Made by a program: the position numbers and the translations under genes. Source: Escherichia phage vB_EcoP-U8. From it: DNA of 40,294 nucleotides. The stretch is from the sequence record MT862763.1; one strand, given 5' to 3'. Positions within the stretch are counted from its first letter, which is position 1. Each line of letters begins with the position of its first letter. Below, one piece after another: positions 1-36,921 of this stretch. The notes beneath the pieces were generated by a model. That model worked only from the letters and a program-made list of their open reading frames with translations, did not search any database and was not told the DNA's origin.

Positions 1-982
1 AGCCTTCGTATGGGTTATCGAAGCAAGGTTCGTTACCACCAATACCGTACGGCGCAAAGATGCCAACCGCAGCAAGCGTGTCATCCTTGACCTTAGCCGT
101 AAACTCGTCCTTCTGCTCCTCGGTCAGACCACAAGCATTAACCACCATGCCATCCTCAAGCAGCACCTCAAAGCCAATCACCTTACCTTCGTTAGCCTTG
201 CCCGGAGTCCCCCACACGAGGCCACATACAGTTCCGTCGATGGTCTCCTCTGGCTTCATTTTCCACATTCCCGACTTCTTGCCACGCTTATATTTACCCA
301 GTGGGTCCTTGACTACCAGACCCTCGTGTCCTTCCAGACGCTTCTGTTCGTACAGGGAGTTGAGCGACTCAAGGTCATAGACCGTGTGTGACTCAGACAG
401 AGCCCAGTCGATTTCCGGGAAGTATTTCTGGAGGAGAGGGACGATAGATTCGGCCTTCAGGCGTGTGACGCTATGGATAGGACCTTCGGCTTTCGGGTCA
501 GCAATGGTTGTCATGTCGATGACACCGTAGACCACAACCTGAAGTCGTGACCGGGATCCCCAGAACGGGAGCTTCTTTCCACCAGTCGCCGGCGAATAGT
601 ATTCAGCGAACTCCTCGTTGTTAGGCTTGAGCCACTTCGTTCGGATGAGACCTGAGGAGGTGTTGAAGTCTACACCTTTGACCATGACCTCGCCATCAAT
701 CATCATGCCCACACCTTCGTAGCCGGATTGACGCAGGAACCATCGCCAGTCAGCTTGGGTCCACGCATTACCTAACTCAGAGTTCATCCACTCCAAGGCT
801 GGTAGAGGTTTCGACTCGCGGCTAAGCCAGTAGGTCTCACCTTCACGCAGGACCAGGAGGTTCAGGCGCACACCATCGTACTTCACTTCAGCTTCCAGAG
901 ACCCGGCTGCTTCCAGTGCCTTCTTAATTCCAGACTCAGAGTAATCTACAGCGCGGTGCGGGTTAGTTTTGATAGTTGTCAT
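1..982 (-). CDS. ATP-dependent DNA ligase (T7 gene 1.3-like), 5' part; runs off window start, C-terminal codons at 40207..40294
   Basis: Own RC translation from ATG at 980-982: MTTIKTNPHRAVDYSESGIKKALEAAGSLEAEVKYDGVRLN... with KYDG adenylation motif and collinear match to T7 ligase as recalled. Absent from the six-frame track because it has no in-window stop. Confidence 0.85.
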   Translation of the reverse strand, partial: MTTIKTNPHRAVDYSESGIKKALEAAGSLEAEVKYDGVRLNLLVLREGETYWLSRESKPLPALEWMNSELGNAWTQADWRWFLRQSGYEGVGMMIDGEVMVKGVDFNTSSGLIRTKWLKPNNEEFAEYYSPATGGKKLPFWGSRSRLQVVVYGVIDMTTIADPKAEGPIHSVTRLKAESIVPLLQKYFPEIDWALSESHTVYDLESLNSLYEQKRLEGHEGLVVKDPLGKYKRGKKSGMWKMKPEETIDGTVCGLVWGTPGKANEGKVIGFEVLLEDGMVVNACGLTEEQKDEFTAKVKDDTLAAVGIFAPYGIGGNEPCFDNPYEG

Positions 983-2113: not shown

Positions 2114-4795
2114 TTAAGCGAATGCAAAGTCTGAAGACAAGATGTCTTCGATATTCAGTTTACCTTTCTTCGGAAGCTCAGGCAACTTGTCTCTCTGGCT
2201 CTCGTGAAGCTGGTATTCAAACTGCTCGTAGAAGTCAAGCAGCACATCGTTGTCGCGGTAGGTCTCGACCATCGTCTCACGGACTCCACGGAACAGATAC
2301 TCAGCGTCAGCCGGGATGGTCCCGAAGCTATCGTGAATCACTGCGAATGACATCACGCCATATTTGCGGTGCGTGTGTACTACAGTCTTGCGGAGGTGGC
2401 TACCATCTTGTGAGTGGACGAAGTTCGGGCTAATGCCTGACTCCTGCTTGTGCTTGTCCAGCTCTTTCTTCGTGCCTTTGTTGACGGTAGGCTGAAGGTT
2501 GAATGACCCTAAGAACATCAGGTTCAGACGAGTGGTGTCCTTCTTGCGGTATTCCTGCCAGACAGGGAAACCATCAGGTGTGACCCAGTGTACCGGAAGA
2601 CAAGGCTTCAGGATTTCTCCAGTCTTCTTGTCCTTCACTTCAGCAGCAAGCAGCTTGGCAGCACCCTGAAGCCATTTCATCGCGTCAACCGCAGCAACTA
2701 CGGTCACACTCACAGCTTCCCAAATCATCTTAGCCATGAAGCGAGATGCTTGGCTTGGTTCAGTGAACATAGCGCCAGACCCTGAGTCAATCGCTGGCAT
2801 CACGATGTCCTCGTAAACTTGGTCTGCGAAGCCGTACTCTTTCGACCCGTAGGCCAGAGTCATGACCGAACGCTTAGTGACCTTTCGTGACATACCGTAG
2901 GTCAGCCACTGACGGGCAAGCTCTCGTGTCCCCAGCTTGAGACGCTCGGTAATCTCACCAGTTTTCTTGTCCTCGTGAGTTACCATCTCGTTGTCCGTAC
3001 CGTTAACCAGTAGGACTTTAAGCTCCTCCTCAATGCGGTCAGACACGATGCGGTAGATGTCTTGGACCTTACCGGATGGCGTCAGGTTTACTGCATGTCC
3101 ACCGATGTGGTCGCGAAGCATAGCGCTGAAGTGCTGAATCCCAGAGCAGGACCCATCGAACGCTATCGGCAGCGAGCAGGAGTAAGACAAGCCGTGGTGC
3201 ATTACGCCAGCATACTCGAAGCAGAACGCTAGGAAGCAGAACGGAGAGTCTAACTTGCCCCACCACTCAATGCTATCCATCGGTGCCTTGGCAGCAGCCA
3301 TGATGTTGTCGTGGTTATCTTCCACCCACTTGATACGCTCCTCGAAGGTGACTTTATCGACACCCGCGCAGTTTGCACCGTGGACCTTCAGCCATTTGAA
3401 ACCATCAGCACCAATAGGCTTACCGACTGCCAGAGTCAGAAGACCCTTTTGCATGTCGTTACCCTGAGGGTTGAACATCGGCACAGCGTAGACGCGACCG
3501 CGCCAGTCCATGTTATACGGGAACCAGATGGCCTTGAACTGAGAGAACTTGTTCGCTTGGTTGACGATAAAGCTCAGTGACAATCTTCGTGACTGTCTGG
3601 CCTTCTCGCGGCGATAGATACCAGCAGCAGCCTTCTTCCATGCCTTGAGTTCTTCTTCAGTCTCACCCGCATAGTCCTCAGGCTTCAGCGGTTCCATCTG
3701 AGGGATGTCATCAATAGGCGTGTTGTTCAGCTTCTCGACCATGTTCACCACTTCCAGAACCTTCTTGTTCACTTTCCAAGGTGTATTCTGAATGATGTTC
3801 ACAGCGTCATAGACTTCAGGCATATACACGTCTTCGTAGCGTGCTACCGCAGACTTAGACCCTAAGCGAATCAGTGGTAATGGTCTGCGTCCTTTGGCCC
3901 AGTACCCACCGCCTACGACACCAGTCCACGGCTTAGGTGGAACGACGCAAGGCTGGTAGACTGGAGCTATACCCGCAAGGCTGAATCCTCGTTGTGCCAT
4001 CTTCTTGACCCAGAAGTCTGACAGGTGGACCATCTCAACGTCAGCCGCTGCATTGCCAGCACCGTAACGCTTAAGCTCGACCAGTTGTGTGGACTGGATG
4101 ACAATCTCCAGCATCTTGATTCCAACGTGGACAGCCTCGGTCGGACTCCAAGTCCCCCACGCATCTTCCAGTTGGCCTTGCTCCAGCATGGATGCCTCGA
4201 CCGCTTGCATGTAGGCTTTCTTGTAGGACGCCCCGGCCCGCTTATTCAGGTTATCAGCTATCGCCTTCTTGAAGTGCTCTTTCTCCTTGTCACGGATGCG
4301 ACCGAAGCGGATTTCGTCCTCAAGTGTGCGACCTATCGCTGAGGCCATCGGTGTAATCGGTATCCCTTCAGGCTTGACCAGCTTGGAGAGTATGACCTTC
4401 AGTATGATAACCGCAGCAGACTCGCAGGAGATGCGCAAAGAGCGGACCTTTACGGCCTTCTCTTCAGTGCTCAACATGGTGAACGCTACGCTCGGACGAG
4501 AGGTTGACAGCTTCCCGTCTGGACCTTCATGCCACTCCTTGACGGCTTGCGCAATCTTAGGGACCAGAGTCTGCATCAAAGGCTTGGCGACCTGATTGTC
4601 TGCCAGTTCCCCTCGCTCAGTCTGTCTCTCAAGGTTCTTGATGAAACGTCGCTCGCCTTCAGTGTATGCCTCGTGCTCAAGCTGAAGCTGTTTGACTGCA
4701 AGGTCTTGCCCGTAGTGGTCAGCCAGTAGGTTAAACGGCTCAATGGCGTTCGACACATCAGAGAAGTCGTGCTTGTCAATAGAGATGACGCTCAT
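2114..4795 (-). CDS. Single-subunit DNA-directed RNA polymerase (T7 gene 1-like)
   Basis: 893 aa; collinear with T7 RNAP as recalled (MSVISIDKHDFSD..., ...ILSSDFAFA C-terminus, NMDWRGRVYAV, HDSFGT motifs). Confidence 0.97.
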   Translation of the reverse strand: MSVISIDKHDFSDVSNAIEPFNLLADHYGQDLAVKQLQLEHEAYTEGERRFIKNLERQTERGELADNQVAKPLMQTLVPKIAQAVKEWHEGPDGKLSTSRPSVAFTMLSTEEKAVKVRSLRISCESAAVIILKVILSKLVKPEGIPITPMASAIGRTLEDEIRFGRIRDKEKEHFKKAIADNLNKRAGASYKKAYMQAVEASMLEQGQLEDAWGTWSPTEAVHVGIKMLEIVIQSTQLVELKRYGAGNAAADVEMVHLSDFWVKKMAQRGFSLAGIAPVYQPCVVPPKPWTGVVGGGYWAKGRRPLPLIRLGSKSAVARYEDVYMPEVYDAVNIIQNTPWKVNKKVLEVVNMVEKLNNTPIDDIPQMEPLKPEDYAGETEEELKAWKKAAAGIYRREKARQSRRLSLSFIVNQANKFSQFKAIWFPYNMDWRGRVYAVPMFNPQGNDMQKGLLTLAVGKPIGADGFKWLKVHGANCAGVDKVTFEERIKWVEDNHDNIMAAAKAPMDSIEWWGKLDSPFCFLAFCFEYAGVMHHGLSYSCSLPIAFDGSCSGIQHFSAMLRDHIGGHAVNLTPSGKVQDIYRIVSDRIEEELKVLLVNGTDNEMVTHEDKKTGEITERLKLGTRELARQWLTYGMSRKVTKRSVMTLAYGSKEYGFADQVYEDIVMPAIDSGSGAMFTEPSQASRFMAKMIWEAVSVTVVAAVDAMKWLQGAAKLLAAEVKDKKTGEILKPCLPVHWVTPDGFPVWQEYRKKDTTRLNLMFLGSFNLQPTVNKGTKKELDKHKQESGISPNFVHSQDGSHLRKTVVHTHRKYGVMSFAVIHDSFGTIPADAEYLFRGVRETMVETYRDNDVLLDFYEQFEYQLHESQRDKLPELPKKGKLNIEDILSSDFAFA

Positions 4796-4864
4796 ACTTA
4801 AAGTCCTTGTTATTAGTCTTTCACTTAAAGTCTCTTTGGTCTTTCACTTGGAGTCTTAGACCTT

Positions 4865-4887
4865 GAGTCCTATAGTGATAGTTAAGT
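4865..4887 (-). promoter_or_regulatory. Phage RNA polymerase promoter directly upstream of the RNAP gene
   Basis: Plus strand CCTATAGTGATAGTTAAG at 4869..4886; +1 about 75 nt upstream of the RNAP start codon. Confidence 0.65.
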
Positions 4888-4892
4888 CAGAA

Positions 4893-5219
4893 TTACTTGC
4901 ATATCAGCGGGTTAGCGTGGAGATGACTGAAGTCACCATGAGTCGTGTGCTTGATGGTTGACCGTTGGTCTATCGCCTTCCAGCCTGAGACTAAAAGTTT
5001 ACCATCGTCAGTGATTGGTCGTCCACCATACACCAGACACATTAGTTCGGACTTATGGCCCTCAGCCCGGAGTCTTGCTTGCAGTACCCGGTCCCGCTCC
5101 TGCTGTTGACGTGCGGAGTGACTTGACGTTCCGTGACGATACCCGGTAGCCAGTAGGCTTAACATTTGCATGTCTGCGTCCATAGAGTGTACCAGATTAA
5201 TCCCGTATGACTTGTTCAT
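4893..5219 (-). CDS. hypothetical early protein
   Basis: 108 aa ORF in early region; His-rich segments; no recognised family. Confidence 0.45.
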   Translation of the reverse strand: MNKSYGINLVHSMDADMQMLSLLATGYRHGTSSHSARQQQERDRVLQARLRAEGHKSELMCLVYGGRPITDDGKLLVSGWKAIDQRSTIKHTTHGDFSHLHANPLICK

Positions 5220-5593
5220 TACAGTTTGCTCCCAAGTGTTGCTATATCCCAGACGTTCGCTAAGTTACGCATGAATCGTCCGTTAGGTTGACGTACAGTC
5301 CAGCTACCCAGACGTACATATTTGAATTTGTAGACTTTACGCGCTTTGTTGATGTCTCTCACCAGCACGTAGGCGATAAGTCCATAGCCTATGGCTATCA
5401 ATAGTGCGATACTCATAGTCATAAGCCCCATAACAGTTGAGTAAGGACCGGTAGTTTGCAGACTAGAGTAAACATTCCCCACGCTACGAAGCCTGAGATA
5501 GTCCAGATGATTGCAGTGCTCATAGTTAACTCCTATTAATTCAAGTGGTAATCTTTGAGGCCACCTATCAGTCGATGACCTCTCGTCTATCAC
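5219..5593 (-). CDS. hypothetical early protein with predicted transmembrane helix (start uncertain)
   Basis: 124 aa ORF; hydrophobic stretch MSIALLIAIGYGLIAYVLV; a 33-aa alternative-frame ORF with strong SD overlaps near 5430..5531. Confidence 0.3.
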   Translation of the reverse strand: MIDERSSTDRWPQRLPLELIGVNYEHCNHLDYLRLRSVGNVYSSLQTTGPYSTVMGLMTMSIALLIAIGYGLIAYVLVRDINKARKVYKFKYVRLGSWTVRQPNGRFMRNLANVWDIATLGSKL

Positions 5594-10302: not shown

Positions 10303-10674
10303 TCAGAATCGACGTACAAGCGTCTTCTCTAGGTATGAAACAGCCCGCTGGACACTAGATGTAGTATCTCCCAGTGCGCCAATTGCTGCATTGCACTTGC
10401 GGCATAAAACCCCTCTAATCACCCCAGTGGAATGACAGTGGTCAATACACGCAGAGTCTGTATCTCCTTTCTTCCCACCTACTTTAAGCGGAGTCTTGCA
10501 AATCTCGCATGAGCTTCCCACCGAGTGCATCAGGTCCTCGAACTGTTCAAGCGTGAGACCATATAGGCTCTTTATCTGCGAAATGCGCTTAGTCCTCTTT
10601 CTTCGTTCCTCCCGTTCCTCTCGTAATTTACGAGCAGCTTGAACGTTAGCCTTTATAACATCTTCCGATACCAT
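10303..10674 (-). CDS. Endonuclease VII-family protein (putative homing endonuclease) between gene 18 and 18.5
   Basis: CEICK...IDHCHSTGVIRGVLCRKCN, the Cys/His pattern of T4 endo VII-type proteins; SD AGGAGGTGGT before ATG. Confidence 0.75.
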   Translation of the reverse strand: MVSEDVIKANVQAARKLREEREERRKRTKRISQIKSLYGLTLEQFEDLMHSVGSSCEICKTPLKVGGKKGDTDSACIDHCHSTGVIRGVLCRKCNAAIGALGDTTSSVQRAVSYLEKTLVRRF

Positions 10675-14154: not shown

Positions 14155-14177
14155 GTTTCCTATAGTGATAGTTTAGT
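14155..14177 (-). promoter_or_regulatory. Phage RNA polymerase promoter (phi17 position)
   Basis: CCTATAGTGATAGTTTAG at 14159..14176; overlaps gene 16 stop codon; 50 nt upstream of gene 17 ATG. Confidence 0.75.
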
Positions 14178-17100
14178 CCTTGATGTGGATGCCTTGCTCC
14201 TCAAACGTTCCAAGCAGCAGCTTCTGGGTAATGGGGTCGTTCGGAACCAGTTCACGGAACGTATTATACATCCCGGTCATGTAGTCACGCTCGTTGACAC
14301 GAGTATCAGCCTTGAGGTAGCCAGCCAAGTTGTAAGCCGAAGCGCCAACGTTAGCAGCATATCCGAAAGCTGGAACCTGCTCCAAGAAGTTACCAACAAC
14401 ATTCATCACAGGGTCACTTGTAGCTGCACCATACGCGATGGCACGCTCAGGCTTCTCTGTAGGAGAACGAGGTAGGATAGAAGAACGGAGCATCTTAGTG
14501 TCCTCATATCCAGCGATGCCTCCCAGAATGTTAGCTACCCCAAGTGGGCCACCAAGATGTGAACTACGGGACAGGGCCGCATAGCCAATCATCGTTGGGT
14601 CCAGAGCTTGCTTAAGGTAGTCACGGTCTCGACCATCCTGCATAGCATAAGCCTTGACATGCGCCTGAGCCATGTAGTAGATACCAGCCAGACCCATAGA
14701 CATCACGGTCGACAGTGCAGCGTCAATCGCTCTGTTGTTCTTCGTGGCGTTATAGAAGGTTCGCATGGTTCTCCCATTGATAGACTTGATGACGAAGTTC
14801 TTAAACTGAAGGACAGTCTTAGCGAGAGGACCATAAGCCTTGGCGTCCATGTTTGACAGCTTATGAGGCCGGAGTAACGTCTCGTCAGCGATGGTGTCAC
14901 CCATACGCCACAGGTCCATAGCCCTTGGGTCCTGACTAAACGCCTTCTTATCCTTGATGGTGTACTTCCCGTCTGGACCACGAGTCACTGACTCACGGAT
15001 TAGGGACTTAATACCCTTCCACTGCTCGTCAGAGATACCAGCGGTCTTCAGCCAGCGGTCATCAAACTTACGCTTACTACCAGTCAGACTATGCTCCACG
15101 ATGTCAGACAGGAAGCCTTGACGTCCAGCATCTAACAGGTAGTTTGTCGTACCGTTGAGGACTTTAGTGAACGGAGAGCGTACTGCAAGTTCACCAGTGT
15201 AATACTTGGCAGTCCCCAGAGCTGTGGCTGTACCACTACCTAGGTCACTGTAAGATCTCAGACGGTCAATGACATCCTGTTTAGACGGACGGATTGAGTC
15301 ATCCAGTTCCTTACCGAAGATAACATTGTGCAGGTCCTTAATCTCTGAGGCCCCTACCTTCTTGTTACGGAAGGCTAGGTCACGGAACATAGGGACTCCA
15401 TGTAGCAATGCACGAACGTTACCACGAGCTAGCATACCACCAATCTCCGTTAAGTTCTGAACACCCATGTAGGCATTCTTAGCGAAGAACGATAGGTCTG
15501 TCATTGTGCGCATCACGGTAGCGAAGGCAGCATCGTCAGCACCATCACGTCGGGCACGACCAGTGAGAATCTTCAAGGTGTCACGTAAGGTCGAGACCTC
15601 ACCTTTCAACTTGCCGTCATCACCAGCCTTGTTCATCATGGTCTCAACCAAGTCCTTCATATCCTTCGTGGTTTTGCCTGTACCAGCCATGATAGCAATA
15701 TCGCCATTAACTCGACGGTTGTAGGCCGGGACAATCTTGTCCATGTCCCACTCACGCAGGTTGTTGACACTGAAGGTCTGACCGTTAGGCAGGACGATTG
15801 ACATATCACTATCGAACAGGTTACGAGCCTCAAGGAAGCTGTTGTTCTCCAGACCAACCAGGCCGTTGATGTTCTCTTCCATTACGGATGAACGTTCGAA
15901 CTGCTCGGTGTGAGAGATACCATAAGCCTTATCGTTTGCGTACTTATCTACCGCAGCCGCAAGTCCTTCTGGAGTCAACGTAGGGTCAGCCTCTAAGAGT
16001 GCCTCGTCCACACGTTTCTTGACCTCAGGTCGAGACGCATAGCTGGTCAACCATGACTTCTTGATGGCCTCCTGTAGTGCCTCTGGACTTCCAAGCTCCT
16101 TGATGTACAGCTCCTTCATCTGTTTGCTATACACATGCGGGACGTAGGTTCCCTTGAAGCGGCTACCCGGAAAGATAGACTGAGCGTCTGGACGACCAAA
16201 CATCGCTGGGTTCTCCATCATCTCACGCTTGGCGTCGAACTGGTTCTTCAGTAGGTCATAGACTTTCAGTTCTCCAGGAGTCAGTTCAGCCTTCAGGTTT
16301 CCGCTACCGTCTTCGATAGCCATAGACACACGCTGGTAGATGTCCTGACGGAATGCGCCAGAGTCTCGCCAGAATGCAGTCTGGAAGTACGGGTCCTTTA
16401 GTGCCTCAGTAACCGCATCGTCGATGTCGTTGTAGAACCGATGGTCCACAGAACGAAGTCTCTCGAACACGTCTGACGCAGTTGTCCCGATTTTACCTGA
16501 GGCCCCAGACTGCATACCAGTAGGTGAACGCACTAAGTCAGCAGCTACTCCACGAATCTCAGGGTTCTCAGACCGAAGCAGCTTCAGGCCAATCTCGGTA
16601 AGTCCACCAAGGTTCACACCAGCAGCGGCACGTTCCGGCTCAATCACTTCGTCAAAGACTTGACGTGTCTTAGGGTTCAGAGGGTTCTCACCAATCAGGA
16701 TTGAACCGTCTTCCAGTCGTACACTTCCCGGCTCATTCGGAACGTCAGCGAACTTAACGCCTTGATGACTAAAGGTCTGCTCACCTTCCTGAATAGGTAG
16801 ACGAGATAGGTCCTGACCATCAACGTTACGAGCAGTCTCACGAGCTTCCAGACGTGTAGCTGGACCAGCGAACTCATTAGTGTTTCGACCTAAGGCTCTG
16901 CCTAATCCATCAGCGATAGCAGTCATACCTCCACCGAAGAGAGCACCACCAAGGATAGCCTCAGCCACATGAGCATCCCCACCAGCCACTGATGTACGGG
17001 CCATCTCTGACACACCAGCAAGTGCTCCAGATTGAGCAGCCACGGTGAACATCTTATTGACCAGCTTAGCACCTTTACCAACCTGTCCAGCAATAGGAAC

Positions 17101-18060
17101 GTATGTCAGAGGGTCCACGCCAGCACCAATAACACCAGCAGCTAACTGAGCGCCAGTCCCAGCCTTGGCCTTCTCTTGGTCCAACTTCTGGTTCTCAATC
17201 GCCAAGTTAATAAGCTCAGTCAGGTTCTGAGGGGAGCCACCAGTAATGACTCCGTAATACTGAGGCAGAACCCCAGCGTTACGAATCTGGTCCAGCTCCT
17301 CACGAGACCACTTATGGTTGTTCCATCGCGTCGGGTTGAACACATCGCCAATGACATCCAGTGAGTCCTCAGTCTGACCAGCTCTGATAGCCACGCCGAC
17401 CATAGAGTTCTTCACTTCAGCTTCTGTAGCCGCACCGAAACCGAACCACGTAGAGCGATCCTCTCGTTCCTGCATGGTCTCGCCAGTAGCCTTATAGAAC
17501 ATCTCACCGAACGATTCGTTGGGAGCTTCAGGTGCTTGACCCTCAATGTTCATACCAGCAGCGGTCGGAAGGTTCTCACCCAGAGCTACTTTAGGTTTAT
17601 CCTTGAGTCCTTCCGTGAGTGCGTCAAATACGTTAGCGCTTACTGGTGGAGTCTTTGGGCTAATGCCATTGAGTGCTCGTGCGACTCCCTTCTGATAGAC
17701 TTCAGGGTCGTACCGGGAGCCTGTCTCATGGAAGCTGATAGCTTGAGCCAGAGAAGACAGGGTGTCAGGGTCCGATAGGTCGAGACTCTGGGTCGCCGGG
17801 ATGCCCGTAGCCGAAGCCACTGACTGAATGTACGCCTGAGTGTCGTTCTCGTTCGGAGGTGCCCAACGGTTGATAATCTTCTCGATAGAGTCATAACCTT
17901 GGCGACCGTAGCTTTGAAGGTTTTTAGCTAAGGCTCGGACCCCAGATTCAGGACTATCGAAGATAACGAACGCACCATCATCACCTATAGCACCTTCCCA
18001 TTGGTCTTTGGACTTACGGAGGTTCCCGGGGTTTGAATTCCTTACTCCACGTGTCGCCAT
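14173..18060 (-). CDS. Internal virion protein D (gp16-like) with non-canonical N-terminal domain
   Basis: 1295 aa; long collinear match to T7 gp16 from about residue 250 onward (ENPAMFG, GTYVPHVY, AYNRRVNGDIAIMG); N-terminal ~120 aa does not match the T7 transglycosylase motif. Confidence 0.9.
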   Translation of the reverse strand: MATRGVRNSNPGNLRKSKDQWEGAIGDDGAFVIFDSPESGVRALAKNLQSYGRQGYDSIEKIINRWAPPNENDTQAYIQSVASATGIPATQSLDLSDPDTLSSLAQAISFHETGSRYDPEVYQKGVARALNGISPKTPPVSANVFDALTEGLKDKPKVALGENLPTAAGMNIEGQAPEAPNESFGEMFYKATGETMQEREDRSTWFGFGAATEAEVKNSMVGVAIRAGQTEDSLDVIGDVFNPTRWNNHKWSREELDQIRNAGVLPQYYGVITGGSPQNLTELINLAIENQKLDQEKAKAGTGAQLAAGVIGAGVDPLTYVPIAGQVGKGAKLVNKMFTVAAQSGALAGVSEMARTSVAGGDAHVAEAILGGALFGGGMTAIADGLGRALGRNTNEFAGPATRLEARETARNVDGQDLSRLPIQEGEQTFSHQGVKFADVPNEPGSVRLEDGSILIGENPLNPKTRQVFDEVIEPERAAAGVNLGGLTEIGLKLLRSENPEIRGVAADLVRSPTGMQSGASGKIGTTASDVFERLRSVDHRFYNDIDDAVTEALKDPYFQTAFWRDSGAFRQDIYQRVSMAIEDGSGNLKAELTPGELKVYDLLKNQFDAKREMMENPAMFGRPDAQSIFPGSRFKGTYVPHVYSKQMKELYIKELGSPEALQEAIKKSWLTSYASRPEVKKRVDEALLEADPTLTPEGLAAAVDKYANDKAYGISHTEQFERSSVMEENINGLVGLENNSFLEARNLFDSDMSIVLPNGQTFSVNNLREWDMDKIVPAYNRRVNGDIAIMAGTGKTTKDMKDLVETMMNKAGDDGKLKGEVSTLRDTLKILTGRARRDGADDAAFATVMRTMTDLSFFAKNAYMGVQNLTEIGGMLARGNVRALLHGVPMFRDLAFRNKKVGASEIKDLHNVIFGKELDDSIRPSKQDVIDRLRSYSDLGSGTATALGTAKYYTGELAVRSPFTKVLNGTTNYLLDAGRQGFLSDIVEHSLTGSKRKFDDRWLKTAGISDEQWKGIKSLIRESVTRGPDGKYTIKDKKAFSQDPRAMDLWRMGDTIADETLLRPHKLSNMDAKAYGPLAKTVLQFKNFVIKSINGRTMRTFYNATKNNRAIDAALSTVMSMGLAGIYYMAQAHVKAYAMQDGRDRDYLKQALDPTMIGYAALSRSSHLGGPLGVANILGGIAGYEDTKMLRSSILPRSPTEKPERAIAYGAATSDPVMNVVGNFLEQVPAFGYAANVGASAYNLAGYLKADTRVNERDYMTGMYNTFRELVPNDPITQKLLLGTFEEQGIHIKD

Positions 18061-18491
18061 GTCTTTCTCCTCAAGATATTTCTAATAGAAACCGTACTCA
18101 CTCCATAGCGTTCAGCCAAGAGTGAAACCTTTAGGTCGCTGGACCTTATATCACGCACACTTTCCTCAGTGAGCTTAGACGAGCCTACGAAGCATCCTAA
18201 CGCTTGGCGACCTCTAGTCACCTTATCCTTTATGTTATCAGCTTGGGTGCCAACTTCAAGGTGGCTTGGGTCTATACAGGACGGGTTGTCGCACTTATGG
18301 CGAACAACGTACCCATCCGGTATAGGACCGTTAGCAAGCTCGTAAGCAAGTCTATGCGCTCTGTATTTGACCCTGTTGACCATTATCCTTCCATATCCTT
18401 CTCCGTCTAAGTGGCCTGTAAATCGGATACAGCCAGACTCTTCAGCTACTGACAGTTCTGCCAGTCTCTCACTGGCTGTCCCGTTCTTCAT
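18042..18491 (-). CDS. HNH homing endonuclease-like protein between gene 15 and 16
   Basis: GYVVRHKCDNPSCIDPSHLEVGTQADN HNH motif; 149 aa; not present at this position in T7. Confidence 0.8.
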   Translation of the reverse strand: MKNGTASERLAELSVAEESGCIRFTGHLDGEGYGRIMVNRVKYRAHRLAYELANGPIPDGYVVRHKCDNPSCIDPSHLEVGTQADNIKDKVTRGRQALGCFVGSSKLTEESVRDIRSSDLKVSLLAERYGVSTVSIRNILRRKTWRHVE

Positions 18492-18493
18492 GT

Positions 18494-20776
18494 TTACTCC
18501 TTACCAATTAGTACGTTTGCGATACCCTCCAGTGAGACGTCATTGTACATCCCACCGCGCTTCTCGATGTTGGCCTCTCGGTCAGCTCGACGTTTGTCAC
18601 CAGCAGCTTTAGTCCCGACGATACGCGCTCGCTTGTTAGCGTCACGTTCTGCCTGAGCATATGCGGCATCTTGTGCCTTCTGCTGTTGTTCGCGGTAGAG
18701 TTTACCTACAAGTTCTTTATCGTAGCGAATACGAATAGTACCTGTAGCGTCTTGGAGGAAGATAGAGCCGTTCTGTTCAACAACGGACAACTGAGAGTTC
18801 ACTACCCAAGGGTTGGCCTTAATGAGCTGCTTACGAGCGGTGTCGATAATGTCTCGACCAACCTGCCACGACTCTGGGTTATCCCCGACCATAAGCTGGT
18901 GCTTCGACACCATGCCGATGGACTTACCGTCAGAACCTTCAGACTGGAACGTTACGGTGTTCTCATTCAGCCAGCGTTGAGTCTGCTGCGTTGCAGCGTC
19001 AGCGTTACCTGTACGATAGTACCATGAGTCCCAGACCTTACGAGCACTTGAGTCTAGAGACGTAGGAAGACGCGAAAGGTCCTTATTCCGAGAGTCGTTC
19101 TTCAACTCCTGCCACGCCTTGTCTGACTCCATGCGCATCTCACGGCTTTGACTTGCAGCTTGCTTATCAGCTTCAATCATCGTCTGAGGGTCCAGACCCA
19201 TCTTATCCATCTGGTCGAACGTAGAGAACAACTGAGCTTGGTCAGGATACAGAGCAGCGAAACTTGAAGGGTCCTGAGTGTAGGCACGACGAAGAGATTC
19301 GAAGCGTTGCATCTTGTCTGGGTCGTACTGCCCACGGATGACCGCAGCTTGCCACTCACCAGCAGCGTCCTGAGTAAGCGTTTGGAAGGCATTACGGAAC
19401 GGACCGTTGTTAGTGTCAGCTCTTAATAATGCAACCTTCTGTGCGTCCTTAGCAGCCTCAGGGATGTCCATCTGGTCAATCTGCTGTAGCTTAGAAGACG
19501 CATAGTTGTTCATGTCTGAACGCTTGAACTCTCCTGTGGCTTCAGAGACCGGAAGGTCCTCATAGTTGGTGGACACGTTGTCTCCAGCCAGACGTCGCTG
19601 ATAAACTTGGTCAATGACCAGTTGCTTGTTCTGGGTCTGGATTAACTTCGTGTTCTCCTTCGCCTGTTCAGCAGACTTACGCTTGACCGCTTCCAGTAAG
19701 CTGGCTTCGGCATTAATAAGCATCTGACGCTGAGGCGTGAGTTCTTCCCCCGGCTGAAGCAGGTTGTTCTGCTCCTTGAGTTTCTGAATCTGGGCCAGAC
19801 CGATGGTTGGGTCGTCCTGAAGAATCGCAGACTGAACGCCTAACGATAAGTCTTCCTGATACTTAGCCACCAACTTGTACTCGGTACCTTGAGCCTCAAC
19901 CACAGCAGCATTGAAGACGTCAGGGCCTACAATCTCTTCGATGGTAGCATCAATACCGTTAAGGGTGATACGCTCGCCACGGACTTGCTGTAGGAAGTTT
20001 GAGCCTCCTGACTTCTGGATTGCGTCACGGACCGTCTGGGTAATGACCTCTCGTGCTCGCTGGTCCGAAGGGATAGCAGCAGTCGTTAGTCCATCCCGAA
20101 GGTAGGCCATGAAGGTATTTCCAGACTCAGGCGAACGCATCAGGTCCCCATCGTTAAGGAACGAGTTCATCTCAATACGAGTGTTCAACATTGCTGTCTC
20201 TTCAGACTGCTTGCTGAAATACTTATTGAAAGACCCATAGATAGCGATGTTTCGGTCTGTGATGTTATCGTTGAACCCGCGCTGGAAGAACTCGTCGGTA
20301 GGGTTAATACCCGCCTCTTCAGCATAGGACTTAGCGGCGTCCTGAAGTCTCTGGTGGCGATACTCTTCCATGTCCTGACGTGTACGGAACTCACCGTTCT
20401 GAATCTTAACGTTAATCTCGTCATCAACCGCAAAGGCAGCGTTACGGCCCGTCTTGACTCGAAGTGCTTCCATAGCGTAAGGGTCATCCTGATACAGCAA
20501 TGTACCGTTCTGGATAGCCTCACGTCTTTGCTGAGGTGTCAGCTTACGGATAATCTCGTTAGACCGCTCGTCGGCCCGTGTCTTCTCCTCGTCTTTGAAC
20601 TGCTTGTATAATCCAGTACCAGACTCAACGAAGTTGGTTAACGCCCGAGCAAGACCTGAGTCACCAGTTGGAGCCTGAACGCTGGCTGCTTGATAGTTGA
20701 CGGCGATAGTTTTACCCGGAGCCCTGCCACGACCCATAGTCCGATTAGCCAGAGCTGATTCAATATTACTAGCCAT
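18494..20776 (-). CDS. Internal virion protein C (gp15-like)
   Basis: 760 aa; matches T7 gp15 as recalled (ADERSNEIIRKLTPQQRREAIQNGTLLYQDDPYAMEALRVKTGRNAA). Confidence 0.92.
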   Translation of the reverse strand: MASNIESALANRTMGRGRAPGKTIAVNYQAASVQAPTGDSGLARALTNFVESGTGLYKQFKDEEKTRADERSNEIIRKLTPQQRREAIQNGTLLYQDDPYAMEALRVKTGRNAAFAVDDEINVKIQNGEFRTRQDMEEYRHQRLQDAAKSYAEEAGINPTDEFFQRGFNDNITDRNIAIYGSFNKYFSKQSEETAMLNTRIEMNSFLNDGDLMRSPESGNTFMAYLRDGLTTAAIPSDQRAREVITQTVRDAIQKSGGSNFLQQVRGERITLNGIDATIEEIVGPDVFNAAVVEAQGTEYKLVAKYQEDLSLGVQSAILQDDPTIGLAQIQKLKEQNNLLQPGEELTPQRQMLINAEASLLEAVKRKSAEQAKENTKLIQTQNKQLVIDQVYQRRLAGDNVSTNYEDLPVSEATGEFKRSDMNNYASSKLQQIDQMDIPEAAKDAQKVALLRADTNNGPFRNAFQTLTQDAAGEWQAAVIRGQYDPDKMQRFESLRRAYTQDPSSFAALYPDQAQLFSTFDQMDKMGLDPQTMIEADKQAASQSREMRMESDKAWQELKNDSRNKDLSRLPTSLDSSARKVWDSWYYRTGNADAATQQTQRWLNENTVTFQSEGSDGKSIGMVSKHQLMVGDNPESWQVGRDIIDTARKQLIKANPWVVNSQLSVVEQNGSIFLQDATGTIRIRYDKELVGKLYREQQQKAQDAAYAQAERDANKRARIVGTKAAGDKRRADREANIEKRGGMYNDVSLEGIANVLIGKE

Positions 20777-21378: not shown

Positions 21379-21765
21379 CTAATCCCCCTTCCGGCTTGTA
21401 GCCAGATAGTCAGCAGCCTTACCATCGAAATCTTCGCATTTAGAGTGGTAGTTTCTACGGGTCAGCTTTAGGTTGCAGGTATGACATAGGATTCCTCGGA
21501 CTTTCCCGGAGGTGTGACAGTGGTCAACGCATACTCCTCGGCTAGTTCCTAATGTCTTGCAGATTGCGCAGACCCCGCCCTGCTCTTTTAGGATGGAATC
21601 ATATTCTATCTGCGTAATGTGATACGTCTCGTATCCCTTGTTCTTGTGGCTCCGTCCATTATGACACAGCTTACAGGCAGAGCGTACACCACACTTAGAG
21701 TCTTTCCGTGTAGAGAACGCTTCTAGTGGCTTTTCAATTTTACAGACGGTACAGACCTTAGTCAC
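21379..21765 (-). CDS. Endonuclease VII-family protein (putative homing endonuclease) between gene 13 and 14
   Basis: GGVCAICK...[19 protein letters not shown]; GTG start with SD AAGGAGG; start overlaps gp13 stop. Confidence 0.78.
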
Positions 21766-22239: not shown

Positions 22240-22289
22240 AAGGGCCTATAGTCCCTATAGTGATAGTTAAGGTAAATCTATAGGCCCTT
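22240..22289. repeat. Perfect 12-bp inverted repeat (AAGGGCCTATAG / CTATAGGCCCTT) enclosing the phi13 promoter
   Basis: Arms at 22240..22251 and 22278..22289, 26-nt spacer containing promoter core. Confidence 0.8.
22250..22272 (-). promoter_or_regulatory. Phage RNA polymerase promoter (phi13 position)
   Basis: CCTATAGTGATAGTTAAG at 22254..22271. Confidence 0.75.
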
Positions 22290-32080: not shown

Positions 32081-32370
32081 TGCTTGACCTCGAATCGCAG
32101 GTTAGATACTCCGAACTGGTCATAACCAAAGTCGTCTACCAGCTCCTCCTTGATGGTCTTCTTGAGGGCAATTTCAAGGGCAGACTCAGGGCCTGACTCG
32201 ATTGCGGTTTTGACCAGAGCCAACTGAAGACCATCCAGCTTCTCACCCTCAGCGTAGGCTTTAGTCATCTCAGCCAGTTGGCGACACATGGTATCTTCTT
32301 CCTTTGAGTTAACAACCATCTTCAGATCAAAACTCACACGAATACGTTTAGTAATAGCCATTAGTGACAC
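32077..32370 (-). CDS. gp5.5-like protein (H-NS-binding protein family in T7)
   Basis: ATG at 32368-32370 with SD AAGAAGGAG; MAITKRIRVSFDL...EVKQ resembles T7 gp5.5 as recalled. Confidence 0.8.
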   Translation of the reverse strand: MSLMAITKRIRVSFDLKMVVNSKEEDTMCRQLAEMTKAYAEGEKLDGLQLALVKTAIESGPESALEIALKKTIKEELVDDFGYDQFGVSNLRFEVKQ

Positions 32371-32786
32371 TCCTTCTTAACAAGTTTGCGCTCACGGTTC
32401 GTCTTAATGACGTGTTCGCGTTTTGGAATACACTGTAGATGCTCTATGTTGCAGCACCCACGGTTCAAGCACAAATGGTCTATTTCGTAGCCATTTGGTA
32501 TAGGTCCGCGCCTCTGCTCCCACACCCATCGGTGGAACATGAAGGCGAACTTGTTGCCCTTCCTGTAGCTTCCCATGGAGTACCGGAAGTACCCATCTTG
32601 GTTCCTCTTGTGGGACACGCAGACGATACATCCGGTAGGCATGGTGTGGAAGCGTAGGGTCTGGGTTCGAGGGTCAATGACACTCTTTCCACGTTGGTCC
32701 AATCTTACCCTCCGTATCAAGTTCACACTTGAAGTTATAGAAGCGTCCGACCTCGCGCATCGCCTCTTGAGCAATACGGACGACAT
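32361..32786 (-). CDS. HNH homing endonuclease-like protein overlapping the 3' end of the DNA polymerase gene
   Basis: HRWVWEQRRGPIPNGYEIDHLCLNRGCCNIEHLQ HNH motif; ATG at 32786 has SD GGAG, overlapping pol by 113 nt in another frame; an internal Met at 32642 has no SD. Confidence 0.75.
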   Translation of the reverse strand: MSSVLLKRRCARSDASITSSVNLIRRVRLDQRGKSVIDPRTQTLRFHTMPTGCIVCVSHKRNQDGYFRYSMGSYRKGNKFAFMFHRWVWEQRRGPIPNGYEIDHLCLNRGCCNIEHLQCIPKREHVIKTNRERKLVKKECH

Positions 32787-34845
32787 CTTCTGCTATCTCC
32801 TGAGTACGGCACGCTATCTGCAATTCATCGTGAATCCAAGCCATTAGCGCAAAGTCGCCGTCCCATCCGTTACCGTAACCAGCCTCTTCAAGTTTCTTCT
32901 CAGTCAGTACCATCCAGTGCTTACAGACAACCGCACCGTCCCCCTGAAGTAGGGCGTTAAGTGCTGAGTGTGGAGACCGGATGTGAATACGACGACCATC
33001 CAGACCTTTCAGCCAGCGACGTTTCCACTTGACGATATTCTCACCGTCCACCCACTTAGAGTCTGAGATTAACGTATTACTCACAGCTTCCCTGAGGTCC
33101 TTGATGGCTGGTGTACCCTCAATGAATTTCTTCATCAGAGCTGAACCTTCCTTCTTACCACCGCCTACTATCAGTCCAATCTTAGCGGCCCCTGCACCAT
33201 ACAGGAACGCGTAGATGAACGTCTTAGCGTTGTTACGGAAAGCCTCATGGTCGTGGTTAGACTTATCGCGTTGGACGTTAGGTGCTAACCCAGCGTTTAC
33301 TGCGTTGGCCCAGTGGATGTCACCTTCTACCACAGTCTTCGCATATGCACCACCATCAAACGGAGCCGCTCTGTTCCCAAGACAACGAAGCTCAAGACCT
33401 GAGGCATCCACACCAACTTGAATCCAAGGGTCTGGCTTACCGTCCTTCTTGTTCCACGCTGCACCGAAAGCACCACGGCAAGTCTCACCATATGGAGCAC
33501 CGTTAGCCGGGACCTGAGCCATGTTTGGTGAACTATGGGTCGCACGTCCGGTTACTGCCCCGCATGGGTTTATTGAGCCGTGCATACGTCCGTCTGGACC
33601 TACAAGTTTCAACCATGCGTTCTTACCTTCAGCAGCCTGACCGATGCGCTTCTGGACGACCAGATATTCACGGACCAGCTCTACGCAAGCCTGAGCCTCT
33701 GCGTCTGGTAACTTAACGTGTTCTAACGTCTCGTCATCGACTACAGGTTTCCCGGTGTCAGTGAAGTCTACAGGCTCCCAGCCACGCTCCATCAGGACTT
33801 TCGCTAAGTGGTCTCCGCTTCCCGGATTAAACTCAACGTAAGTGATTGGCGTGAAAGGCGCTCCTTCCATCGTGTCTCGCGTATCACGCTCACAAGGTTC
33901 AAGACCTAAGCGTTGAGCTTTGTTCTTCGGCTTCTTAAAGATGCCACCGACCTTAGGATACACGACTCGCGGATACTTCGGAAGGTCCTTGCCAGTCCGT
34001 GGGTGCTTGAAGAACTCCTTGCCTCCCTTTGGTGCGTACCAGCTACCGAAAGTCGAACGCAGCTTGTCCAGCAGCTCTGCACGTTTGACGGTTAGTTCAC
34101 GATATAAGCCTTCGACCATCTCGGTGTTCATCGGATAGCCGTTACGTTCCATCTTCGCACAGGTCCACGCAGCATCATGTTCCAGACGCAACGCATAAAT
34201 CTGGTCGAAAGCGAACTGTTCAGACTGGAAGTAATACTTGTCAGTCAGGAACTTCTTGAACAACGCCAGTGTGACCACAACGTCCTGAACGTTATAGTCC
34301 AGCATCTCCTGAGACGGGAACAACCATTCGTCCCCAGCCTTATATTCGATACCTTCTGCCTTGCACTTGGCAACGTAATCGTGTTTGTACTCACCCTTCA
34401 TCTCACCGAGACGATAACCCCAAGCCTCAAGAGACTGGCGTCCCATCATCTTAGGAGGCAGACGACCAGCTTTCACCGCGCCCATGTCTGAGAACTTAAT
34501 GTTGGGATACATCAAGCGACCCAGCACCAAGGTATCAATCATCTTGTGTTTCGGGAAGTTAAAGCGTTTCCCGAAGTACAGACGCTTCAGCTTGTCAATA
34601 GCCGGGACGTCATAGTTGATACCGTTGTGGAATACCAGCATACCATCAGGTGATGCGGCAATCTCTTCCACCTTCTGCACATACTCTTTGAAGCCACCGA
34701 CGATACCGACCATCGGAGCTACCCCATACTTAAGGGTCTCATTCGACTCGGCGTTAATCAGGACCCCACAGTGAAACTGGGAGACTGTATCAAGGAGACC
34801 GTTGGTCTCGATGTCAGAACCCCAGATACTCTTAAGGTCAAACAT
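32674..34845 (-). CDS. DNA polymerase (T7 gp5-like, family A with 3'-5' exonuclease)
   Basis: Collinear with T7 gp5 as recalled; start set at MFDLKS (GGAGG SD) rather than ORF-track start 34881; ends ...KECH. Confidence 0.97.
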   Translation of the reverse strand: MFDLKSIWGSDIETNGLLDTVSQFHCGVLINAESNETLKYGVAPMVGIVGGFKEYVQKVEEIAASPDGMLVFHNGINYDVPAIDKLKRLYFGKRFNFPKHKMIDTLVLGRLMYPNIKFSDMGAVKAGRLPPKMMGRQSLEAWGYRLGEMKGEYKHDYVAKCKAEGIEYKAGDEWLFPSQEMLDYNVQDVVVTLALFKKFLTDKYYFQSEQFAFDQIYALRLEHDAAWTCAKMERNGYPMNTEMVEGLYRELTVKRAELLDKLRSTFGSWYAPKGGKEFFKHPRTGKDLPKYPRVVYPKVGGIFKKPKNKAQRLGLEPCERDTRDTMEGAPFTPITYVEFNPGSGDHLAKVLMERGWEPVDFTDTGKPVVDDETLEHVKLPDAEAQACVELVREYLVVQKRIGQAAEGKNAWLKLVGPDGRMHGSINPCGAVTGRATHSSPNMAQVPANGAPYGETCRGAFGAAWNKKDGKPDPWIQVGVDASGLELRCLGNRAAPFDGGAYAKTVVEGDIHWANAVNAGLAPNVQRDKSNHDHEAFRNNAKTFIYAFLYGAGAAKIGLIVGGGKKEGSALMKKFIEGTPAIKDLREAVSNTLISDSKWVDGENIVKWKRRWLKGLDGRRIHIRSPHSALNALLQGDGAVVCKHWMVLTEKKLEEAGYGNGWDGDFALMAWIHDELQIACRTQEIAEDVVRIAQEAMREVGRFYNFKCELDTEGKIGPTWKECH

Positions 34846-34864
34846 GGTTAATCCTCCGTTTAGT

Positions 34865-34905
34865 CTAATCATAAAGGCCACTCTATGTGAATGACCTTTA
34901 GTCTA
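34865..34905 (-). promoter_or_regulatory. Conserved leader stem-loop element, copy C (candidate RNase III site upstream of gene 5)
   Basis: CTAATCATAAAGGCCAC-N-ATGACCTTTAGTCTA immediately upstream of pol RBS. Confidence 0.4.
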
Positions 34906-36842: not shown

Positions 36843-36921
36843 TGGCGTCTCCACGGGGATTCGAACCCTAATCGCAATAGGCCATCACGACCCGCCGCTC
36901 TACCGTTTGAGCTATGGAGAC
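36843..36921 (-). tRNA. tRNA-like gene (anticodon arm atypical; possible anticodon CGU)
   Basis: RC: GTCTCCA TA GCTC AAACGGTA GAGC ... TAGGG TTCGAAT CCCCG TGGAGAC G CCA; perfect 7-bp acceptor stem, U8, canonical D-arm, T-loop and CCA; anticodon stem imperfect and region 3 nt longer than standard. Confidence 0.6.

Follow-up and report, generated by a model that had tools for sequence, protein, structure and literature searches.

We conclude that the open reading frame located precisely at the junction of the gene 15 stop with the gene 16 start in Escherichia phage vB_EcoP-U8 is most probably a free-standing HNH homing endonuclease gene of the T7 gp7.7 / I-HmuI-like type. The window analysed here, the whole 40,294-nucleotide stretch of record MT862763.1, is a complete Kayfunavirus genome in circularly permuted, reverse-complemented form, because the long ORFs all share the minus strand and follow the gene order of T7 (RNA polymerase at 2114..4795, replication genes, portal, capsid, tail, genes 13-17, terminase) and because a 3-kb piece spanning the HNH locus matches 221 phage records, nearly all of them Kayfunavirus (K1F-like Studiervirinae), at 90-96% identity. 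The gene and its boundaries can be read directly from the window and its relatives, and from the comparison of these sequences we infer cleavage, the position of the target and biased inheritance. The features that define the locus are these:

18494..20776, minus strand: gene 15 (760 aa).
18042..18491, minus strand: HNH endonuclease ORF (ORF list; Pfam HNH_3; PHROG 59), of the T7 gp7.7 family and equivalent to gene 7.7C of phage CR44b.
14173..18060, minus strand: gene 16 (1295 aa).
18042..18060, minus strand: 19-nt overlap between the 3' end of the HNH ORF and the start of gene 16, in which recoded gene 16 codons 3-7 supply the HNH stop codon.
18061..18491, minus strand: 431-nt segment missing from HNH-less relatives in alignments, running from the HNH ATG to the base preceding the gene 16 ATG.

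The initial annotation had described a 149-aa ORF wedged between gp15 and gp16, overlapping gene 16 by 19 nt, at a place where T7 has no gene, and the coordinates confirm this picture: the ORF list gives a 149-aa frame with an ATG start at 18042..18491 on the minus strand, which the initial annotation had left unnamed, and T7 genes 15 and 16 are separated by a 26-nt gap that holds no gene. The gene 15 stop codon, TAA, occupies 18496..18494 and the HNH ATG (18489..18491) follows two bases further on, while the HNH stop at 18044..18042 falls 19 nt within gene 16, whose own ATG is at 18060..18058. The insertion boundary is exact in alignments, running from ATG to ATG, as can be seen by comparing HC12, which reads TAA-TAATA-ATGAAG..., with the HNH-less HC13, which reads TAA-TAATA-ATGGCA.... 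The start of gene 16 itself differs between the two kinds of genome, being ATGGCGACTCGTGGTATTCGC in those that are HNH-less and ATGGCGACACGTGGAGTAAGG in those that carry the gene. With its own ATG and its own stop between genes 15 and 16, the ORF is free-standing. An Rfam scan of the window returned no intron family, its sole match being a tRNA-like element elsewhere, and we therefore rejected a reading in which the gene is borne by a group I intron or sits in another RNA context.

Presence of the gene is polymorphic at this one fixed site among close relatives. An HNH gene occupies the 15/16 slot in about 23 of the 221 phage records (mostly Kayfunavirus) and in 3 of 24 IMG/VR loci, the latter recovered with the gp15 C-terminus as query. 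In the remaining relatives a spacer of 4-5 nt, with no ORF, is all that separates genes 15 and 16, and the junction reads GGTAAGGAGTAA-(CATA, TAACA or TAATA)-ATGGCGACTCGTGGTATTCGC. A slot gene present in only about 10% of relatives is not a conserved structural gene, so synteny bears out the earlier view of the ORF as an insertion. We likewise rejected a structural role for its product, since the ORF is absent from about 90% of relatives and since the CR44b annotation carries a mass-spectrometry note on proteins 14, 15 and 16 and none on the HNH protein. Among the carriers, at least two divergent alleles occupy the slot with the same gene 16 overlap. Group A includes the window, CR44b, HC12, EPr2 and LNA5, and also forms like those of ZH4 and SD6, which are further removed (79% nucleotide identity), while group B includes Ro45lw, GA2A and TM1, at about 56% amino acid identity to group A; allele B is not confined to one backbone, occurring in group 1 as well as in group 2. 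Two Przondovirus genomes, 066031 and NK20, also have an HNH gene in the same slot, 37-38% identical and overlapping gene 16 by 17 nt, and the metagenomic protein set includes shorter relatives of 90-139 aa (P0043-P0049).

The closest named counterpart is gene 7.7C of CR44b, recorded as a 'predicted homing endonuclease' (CDM21574.1), which is likewise 149 aa long, sits in the same slot with the same 19-nt overlap and shares 98.7% amino acid identity with the window protein, from which it differs by two amino acids; its record annotates a helix-turn-helix on the residues where one is predicted here. The CR44b gene 16 tract, however, is only 90% identical to that of the window. Unnamed equivalents of 7.7C stand at the same position in HC12, EPr2, PH1061, EFA-1 and others. 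The authors of the CR44b record named the gene 7.7C because of its likeness to T7 gp7.7, and the window protein is 51.6% identical to T7 gp7.7 over aa 21-148, with the same layout of an HNH_3 domain followed by a C-terminal domain. Unlike the window gene, T7 gene 7.7 sits before gene 8. T7 gp7.7 is itself annotated as an HNH endonuclease, and its function is not known to have been tested.

Turning to the protein, an HMM search upholds the HNH assignment made from the letters of the sequence: Pfam HNH_3 (PF13392) matches aa 43-86 with 62.5 bits against a cutoff of 24.8 (E=2.9e-17), and PHROG 59, 'HNH endonuclease', matches with E=7.6e-37. The HNH_3 match is not due to chance, and the motif pointed out in the initial annotation, RHKCDNPSCIDPSHLEVGTQADN, is located at aa 64-86. 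Two domains can be placed on the window:

18234..18365, minus strand: HNH_3 / His-Me finger catalytic core, aa 43-86 (Pfam match, conservation and alignment to I-HmuI).
18069..18167, minus strand: predicted C-terminal three-helix / helix-turn-helix DNA-binding domain, aa 109-141 (AlphaFold, profile and CR44b annotation).

In an alignment of 47 homologues, H46, R47, H65, C67, D68, C72, H77 and N86 never vary and C21 reaches at least 90% conservation, a pattern in which H65 and N86 would be the putative general base and metal ligand and C21, C67, C72 and H77 a putative zinc site. A single-sequence search against PDB sequences gave no match, and I-HmuI (PDB 1U3E) was reached only with the profile built from the 47 sequences (E=1.2e-4, aa 25-143), which aligns H65 with H75 and N86 with the catalytic N96, and which also aligns the region of aa 109-141 to the I-HmuI C-terminal domain and to helix-turn-helix proteins. 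An AlphaFold model (pLDDT 91.4) has N-terminal strands, a beta-beta-alpha core (strands 61-65 and 78-82, then helix 83-92) and, at the C-terminus, a unit of three helices (109-117, 122-129 and 133-140; pLDDT 85-96), giving a modular layout that passes from an N-terminal beta region through the HNH core to a C-terminal helix-turn-helix. In a Foldseek search of the PDB, I-HmuI was again the best match (E=9.7e-4, probability 1.00, 144 columns), followed by I-PpoI and SMAD MH1 domains; TM-scores to I-HmuI are low (0.39-0.45), probably because the domains of an extended protein are arranged differently.

I-HmuI is thus the best solved relative of the window protein both by profile and by fold, with the same domain order, yet the likeness has clear bounds. 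I-HmuI is an intron-encoded HNH nicking homing endonuclease of Bacillus phage SPO1, whereas the window gene is free-standing; it is only 17% identical, it is without the Cys/His cluster of the gp7.7-like family (C21, C67, C72, H77), and its metal ligand D74, the Asp directly before the catalytic His, is aligned with R64 here. This arginine belongs to the consensus of the 47 homologues, VVRHKCDN, and is no private mutation. Because R64 replaces D74, the metal site is predicted to be closer to that of I-PpoI than to that of I-HmuI. The protein therefore resembles I-HmuI in architecture, yet is no close member of the I-HmuI-like group; by family and predicted fold it is an intact His-Me finger nuclease that combines an I-HmuI-like architecture with an I-PpoI-like Cys/His cluster, its activity being assumed.

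The signals around the gene suggest how it could be accommodated in the late structural genes:

18497..18502, minus strand: Shine-Dalgarno AAGGAG within the last codons of gene 15 (sequence and junction alignment of 29 genomes).
18067..18072, minus strand: GAGGAG near the end of the HNH ORF and 6 nt upstream of the gene 16 ATG, a substitute Shine-Dalgarno for gene 16.
~22251..22272, minus strand: nearest upstream phage-RNA-polymerase promoter copy, phi13-like, CTTAACTATCACTATAGGGA, before gene 13 (repeat family and sequence).

In HNH-less phages the AAGGAG at the end of gene 15 lies 7-8 nt before the gene 16 ATG, and in the window it would serve the HNH gene instead. Every allele of the HNH gene brings such a replacement Shine-Dalgarno (GAGGAG or AAGGAG in allele A, AGAGGAG in allele B), and therefore the essential neighbours should remain expressed. 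The phage promoter consensus is CTAAACTATCACTATAGGGA, and the copy that follows the one at 22251..22272 is found at 14158..14184, before gene 17, with no phage-type copies between 14185 and 22250. Because no promoter copy lies between these two, the HNH gene appears to be part of the late 13-to-16 transcript (the phi13-to-phi17 unit), lacking a promoter of its own. A scan of 17000-19500 for sigma-70 promoters and intrinsic terminators found no more sites than in shuffled sequence, and a bacterial-type promoter for the HNH gene was accordingly rejected.

We propose that the HNH enzyme would be made late and would act in a cell co-infected by an HNH-less relative, where it would bind an extended, asymmetric sequence in the HNH-less genome, either right at the 15/16 junction or slightly downstream of it. 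The best candidate for this target is the invariant stretch GGTAAGGAGTAA-N4-5-ATGGCGACTCGTGGTATTCGCAA, at which the enzyme would nick or cut. The break would then be resected and repaired from the HNH-carrying genome, so that the HNH gene would be copied in along with the neighbouring beginning of gene 16, and the carrier would itself be immune since the insertion splits the site, since the start of gene 16 is recoded, or both. The mobile insertion in the late structural operon that the initial annotation had put forward is supported by the comparative data, which argue for mobility, and its suggestion that a target site might be sought at the junction of HNH-less relatives proves apt, in that the junction and the gene 16 start are very conserved there and recoded in HNH carriers. 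A literature search found no cleavage, target-site or homing experiment on this protein or on other gp7.7-like proteins of Kayfunavirus.

The comparative evidence that bears most directly on this mechanism is a tract of gene 16 that is linked to the HNH gene:

17791..18060, minus strand: the divergent first part of gene 16, a candidate tract of co-conversion or immunity.

Against L016, the window has 63 mismatches in the first 270 nt of gene 16 and 193 in the other 4913 nt of genes 15 and 16, that is 23% divergence against a background of about 4% (odds ratio 7.4, Fisher p=1.7e-27), and the tract contains 33 synonymous and 14 non-synonymous codon changes. Emlis, which has no HNH gene and whose gp15 is 99% identical to that of the window at the protein level, differs at 10 positions in the last 700 nt of gene 15 and at 62 in the first 270 nt of gene 16. 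The 976-aa gp15 of Emlis was considered as an intein or insertion and rejected, since aa 508-725 are duplicated there in tandem and in frame, with no Pfam domain. On the gene 15 side, the flank is 98-99% identical to HNH-less near-isogenic relatives right up to the insertion. Over the last 600 nt of gene 15, comparison with 11 group-1 HNH-less genomes gives mostly 0-2 mismatches per 30 nt, including in the last 300 nt, the exceptions being four genomes that diverge in one or more bins 420-600 nt from the stop and L007, with 5 mismatches in the last 30 nt. From the start of gene 16 the same comparison gives 10, 11, 9, 5, 7, 2, 2, 5 and 10 mismatches per 30 nt and then 0-2. Allele B genomes have an analogous tract of about 330 nt. 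A co-inherited flank is thus found by comparison on the gene 16 side only, and such a one-sided tract is what would be expected for co-conversion or for target-site immunity, although ordinary mosaic recombination with one end at the HNH gene could also account for it.

Within the tract, 21 of the first 54 nt of gene 16 differ from the HNH-less form. We rejected those changes in the first 21 nt that are common to every HNH-carrying allele as independent evidence of target immunity, because the overlapping HNH C-terminus and stop codon also demand them: T18A and C19A create the HNH stop, C21R is then forced if gp16 is to keep its Arg, and T9A alters an HNH codon. Gene and tract also have partly separate histories. 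The window HNH gene is 98% identical to those of CR44b and HC12, where the adjoining gene 16 tract is 90% identical, while the tract is 96.7% identical to that of LNA5, whose HNH gene is 89% identical (values of about 30-34% in this mosaic comparison were disregarded as indels in ungapped comparisons). The region is mosaic, and these patterns suggest that the HNH gene spreads horizontally. Two HNH-less genomes, HC13 and Esher7, carry the full HNH-type tract including the former HNH stop codon (ATGGCAACACGTGGTGTAAGG), with HC13 having the same TAATA spacer as HC12, and two others, Monomax and pO91, carry partial tracts. These HNH-less tract carriers look like precise losses, or like repairs that copied the flank without the gene.

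The tract also invites a wider and more tentative reading, rather unlikely as things stand, in which a single co-adapted cassette unites the HNH gene with the 270 recoded nt that open gene 16, and the 14 amino acid changes at the N-terminal end of the gp16 lytic transglycosylase domain matter in their own right instead of hitch-hiking. If so, the nuclease would cause one allele of an ejectosome protein domain to replace another throughout Kayfunavirus and, given the same-slot homologue, Przondovirus; it would maintain the 15/16 junction as a recombination hotspot and thereby shape how the DNA-ejection machinery evolves; and the HNH-less genomes with a whole or partial tract would be those that survived attack, the break having been repaired without gain of the gene.

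The HNH protein is maintained and under purifying selection, because pairwise dN/dS is 0.04-0.28 among eight alleles from the 15/16 slot, even where dS is about 2; each of the eight is exactly 149 aa long. Selection of this kind would also suit a domesticated nuclease or weapon of competition, one that cuts gene 16 or another site of HNH-less co-infecting relatives, lowering their yield or excluding their markers, and that is kept for the benefit of the carrier, not for copying itself. Late co-expression with the structural genes and the position beside an essential ejectosome gene point the same way, and there is a precedent, in that an intron-borne endonuclease is reported to mediate interference competition among co-infecting phages (PMC11620839). 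Such a role is compatible with homing, however, since one cut yields both outcomes, and a frequency of about 10% together with HNH-less genomes that keep the tract fits a selfish cycle of gain and loss better than a strongly beneficial gene, so that we regard the weapon as improbable in place of homing. It is still harder to see the gene as the dead remnant of a homing endonuclease gene, one whose product has lost the ability to cut and which survives only because precise deletion is rare. The metagenomic relatives of 90-139 aa could be decaying copies, and R64 stands where I-HmuI has its metal ligand, but the dN/dS values, the full length of all eight slot alleles, the invariance of H65, N86 and the Cys/His cluster, and the place of R64 in the family consensus make this account highly improbable. 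That the gene is ancestral to Kayfunavirus and was deleted from most lineages, with no mobile insertion, is scarcely credible: HC13 and Esher7 do resemble precise losses, the gene being gone and the recoded gene 16 start with the HNH stop being kept, but losses are expected within a homing cycle and are compatible with mobility, T7 and most relatives are without the gene, its presence does not track backbone groups (allele B occurs on two of them), and the HNH gene is 98% similar between genomes whose flanking backbone is 90-95% similar and whose flanks are mosaic.

The homing endonuclease reading accords with better-studied phages. T4-like free-standing homing endonuclease genes (MobE, Seg proteins) are intergenic, adjoin an essential gene, are sporadic and have a diverged linked flank (PMC2988022, PMC2790892), and nuclease genes, among them the homing endonuclease genes of ICP1, lie at genetic-exchange boundaries beside essential phage genes (PMC10055350). 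The pattern at the window locus matches these, though they belong to another phage family and the window case is known from sequence comparison. Nearer to hand, Hafnia phage Ca, itself a Kayfunavirus, has a 397-bp fragment containing a homing endonuclease gene, which extends into the genes on either side and varies between presence and absence in a single stock (PMC8861465); the genus is the same as that of the window, but the protein is another and it occupies a different slot, the one flanked by the lysis and large terminase genes.

Public records (CR44b and others) already annotate this gene, where it lies and what it probably does, so that the observation holds up without being out of the ordinary. 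In T7-like phages, HNH endonuclease genes of the free-standing kind are common. What is added is modest: the exact boundary, the replacement ribosome-binding site, the one-sided tract, the HNH-less tract carriers and a candidate target site. Near-isogenic genomes with and without the HNH gene, and with a one-sided 270-nt tract in an essential gene, amount to a natural experiment, which together with the whole and partial tracts yields a concrete candidate target site for an enzyme of the gp7.7 family. For phage engineering, the 15/16 junction takes an insert of about 430 bp if a gene 16 ribosome-binding site is supplied.

The gene at the 15/16 junction had been called the second HNH gene of this DNA, and there is indeed another HNH_3 ORF in the window, at 32361..32786, whose product is only 30% identical to the 18042..18491 protein over 76 aa.

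The slot between genes 15 and 16 is occupied by an HNH gene in two Klebsiella phages of a different genus, Przondovirus:

L034 (locus of Klebsiella Przondovirus phage 066031), 3471..3878: HNH gene in the gene 15/gene 16 slot
L035 (locus of Klebsiella Przondovirus phage NK20), 3489..3890: HNH gene in the gene 15/gene 16 slot

The products of these genes share 37-38% identity with the 15/16 HNH of the window, and in both phages the slot HNH overlaps the start of gene 16 by 17 nt. Judged from these sequences, the 15/16 HNH family seems to have landed repeatedly at the gene 15/gene 16 junction across Studiervirinae.

Three other ORFs of the window encode predicted small nucleases:

32361..32786 (-): HNH ORF, 141 aa (Pfam HNH_3, E=2.5e-18)
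21379..21765 (-): Endonuclease VII-family ORF, 128 aa (Pfam E=1.7e-16)
10303..10674 (-): another ORF of the Endonuclease VII family, 123 aa (Pfam E=3.1e-20)

The first HNH of the window comes directly after the DNA polymerase gene (32674..34872), whose end it overlaps. Because it shares only 30% identity with the 15/16 HNH (76 aa aligned), the two are, by sequence comparison, separate lineages. Its position is gene 5.3-like.

The 128-aa ORF occupies the 'gene 13.5' slot, between genes 13 and 14. LM33_P1 and CR44b are without this ORF, their genes 13 and 14 abut, and their gp14 is 195 aa long; in HC13, a hypothetical-protein CDS is annotated in the slot and gp14 is 184 aa, matching the length of gp14 in the window. 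The ORF looks like another free-standing nuclease gene tied to a change at the start of the gene downstream of it, for which F-CphI (PMC6083498) offers a comparison case. The 123-aa ORF is flanked by the small terminase gene and an Rz-like lysis gene, and its presence brings the predicted small His-Me finger nuclease genes of this genome to four.

Gene 15 itself has an unusual form in one relative:

L004 (locus of Kayfunavirus sp. EcoIv1_Emlis, OX460933), 2566..5496 (-): gene 15, 976 aa

This product is 976 aa long rather than 760 because aa 508-725 are duplicated in tandem and in-frame; either this internal core protein really carries the duplication, or the assembly is at fault.

Two further features of the window lie outside the nuclease genes:

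36843..36921 (-): tRNA-like element (Rfam tRNA score 36.7 bits, gathering score 29; ARAGORN tRNA-Thr CGT)
1..982 (-): DNA ligase-like ORF, 327 aa, without a stop codon

The tRNA-like element lies in the gap that precedes the primase/helicase gene and is 99-100% conserved across many Kayfunavirus records, in which it is variously labelled tRNA-Thr, tRNA-OTHER or pseudo-tRNA, or left unannotated. Since the ligase-like ORF continues past the window start and the 40,294 nt correspond to whole-genome length, the window is apparently a circularly permuted assembly whose opening lies at, or inside, the ligase gene's 3' end.
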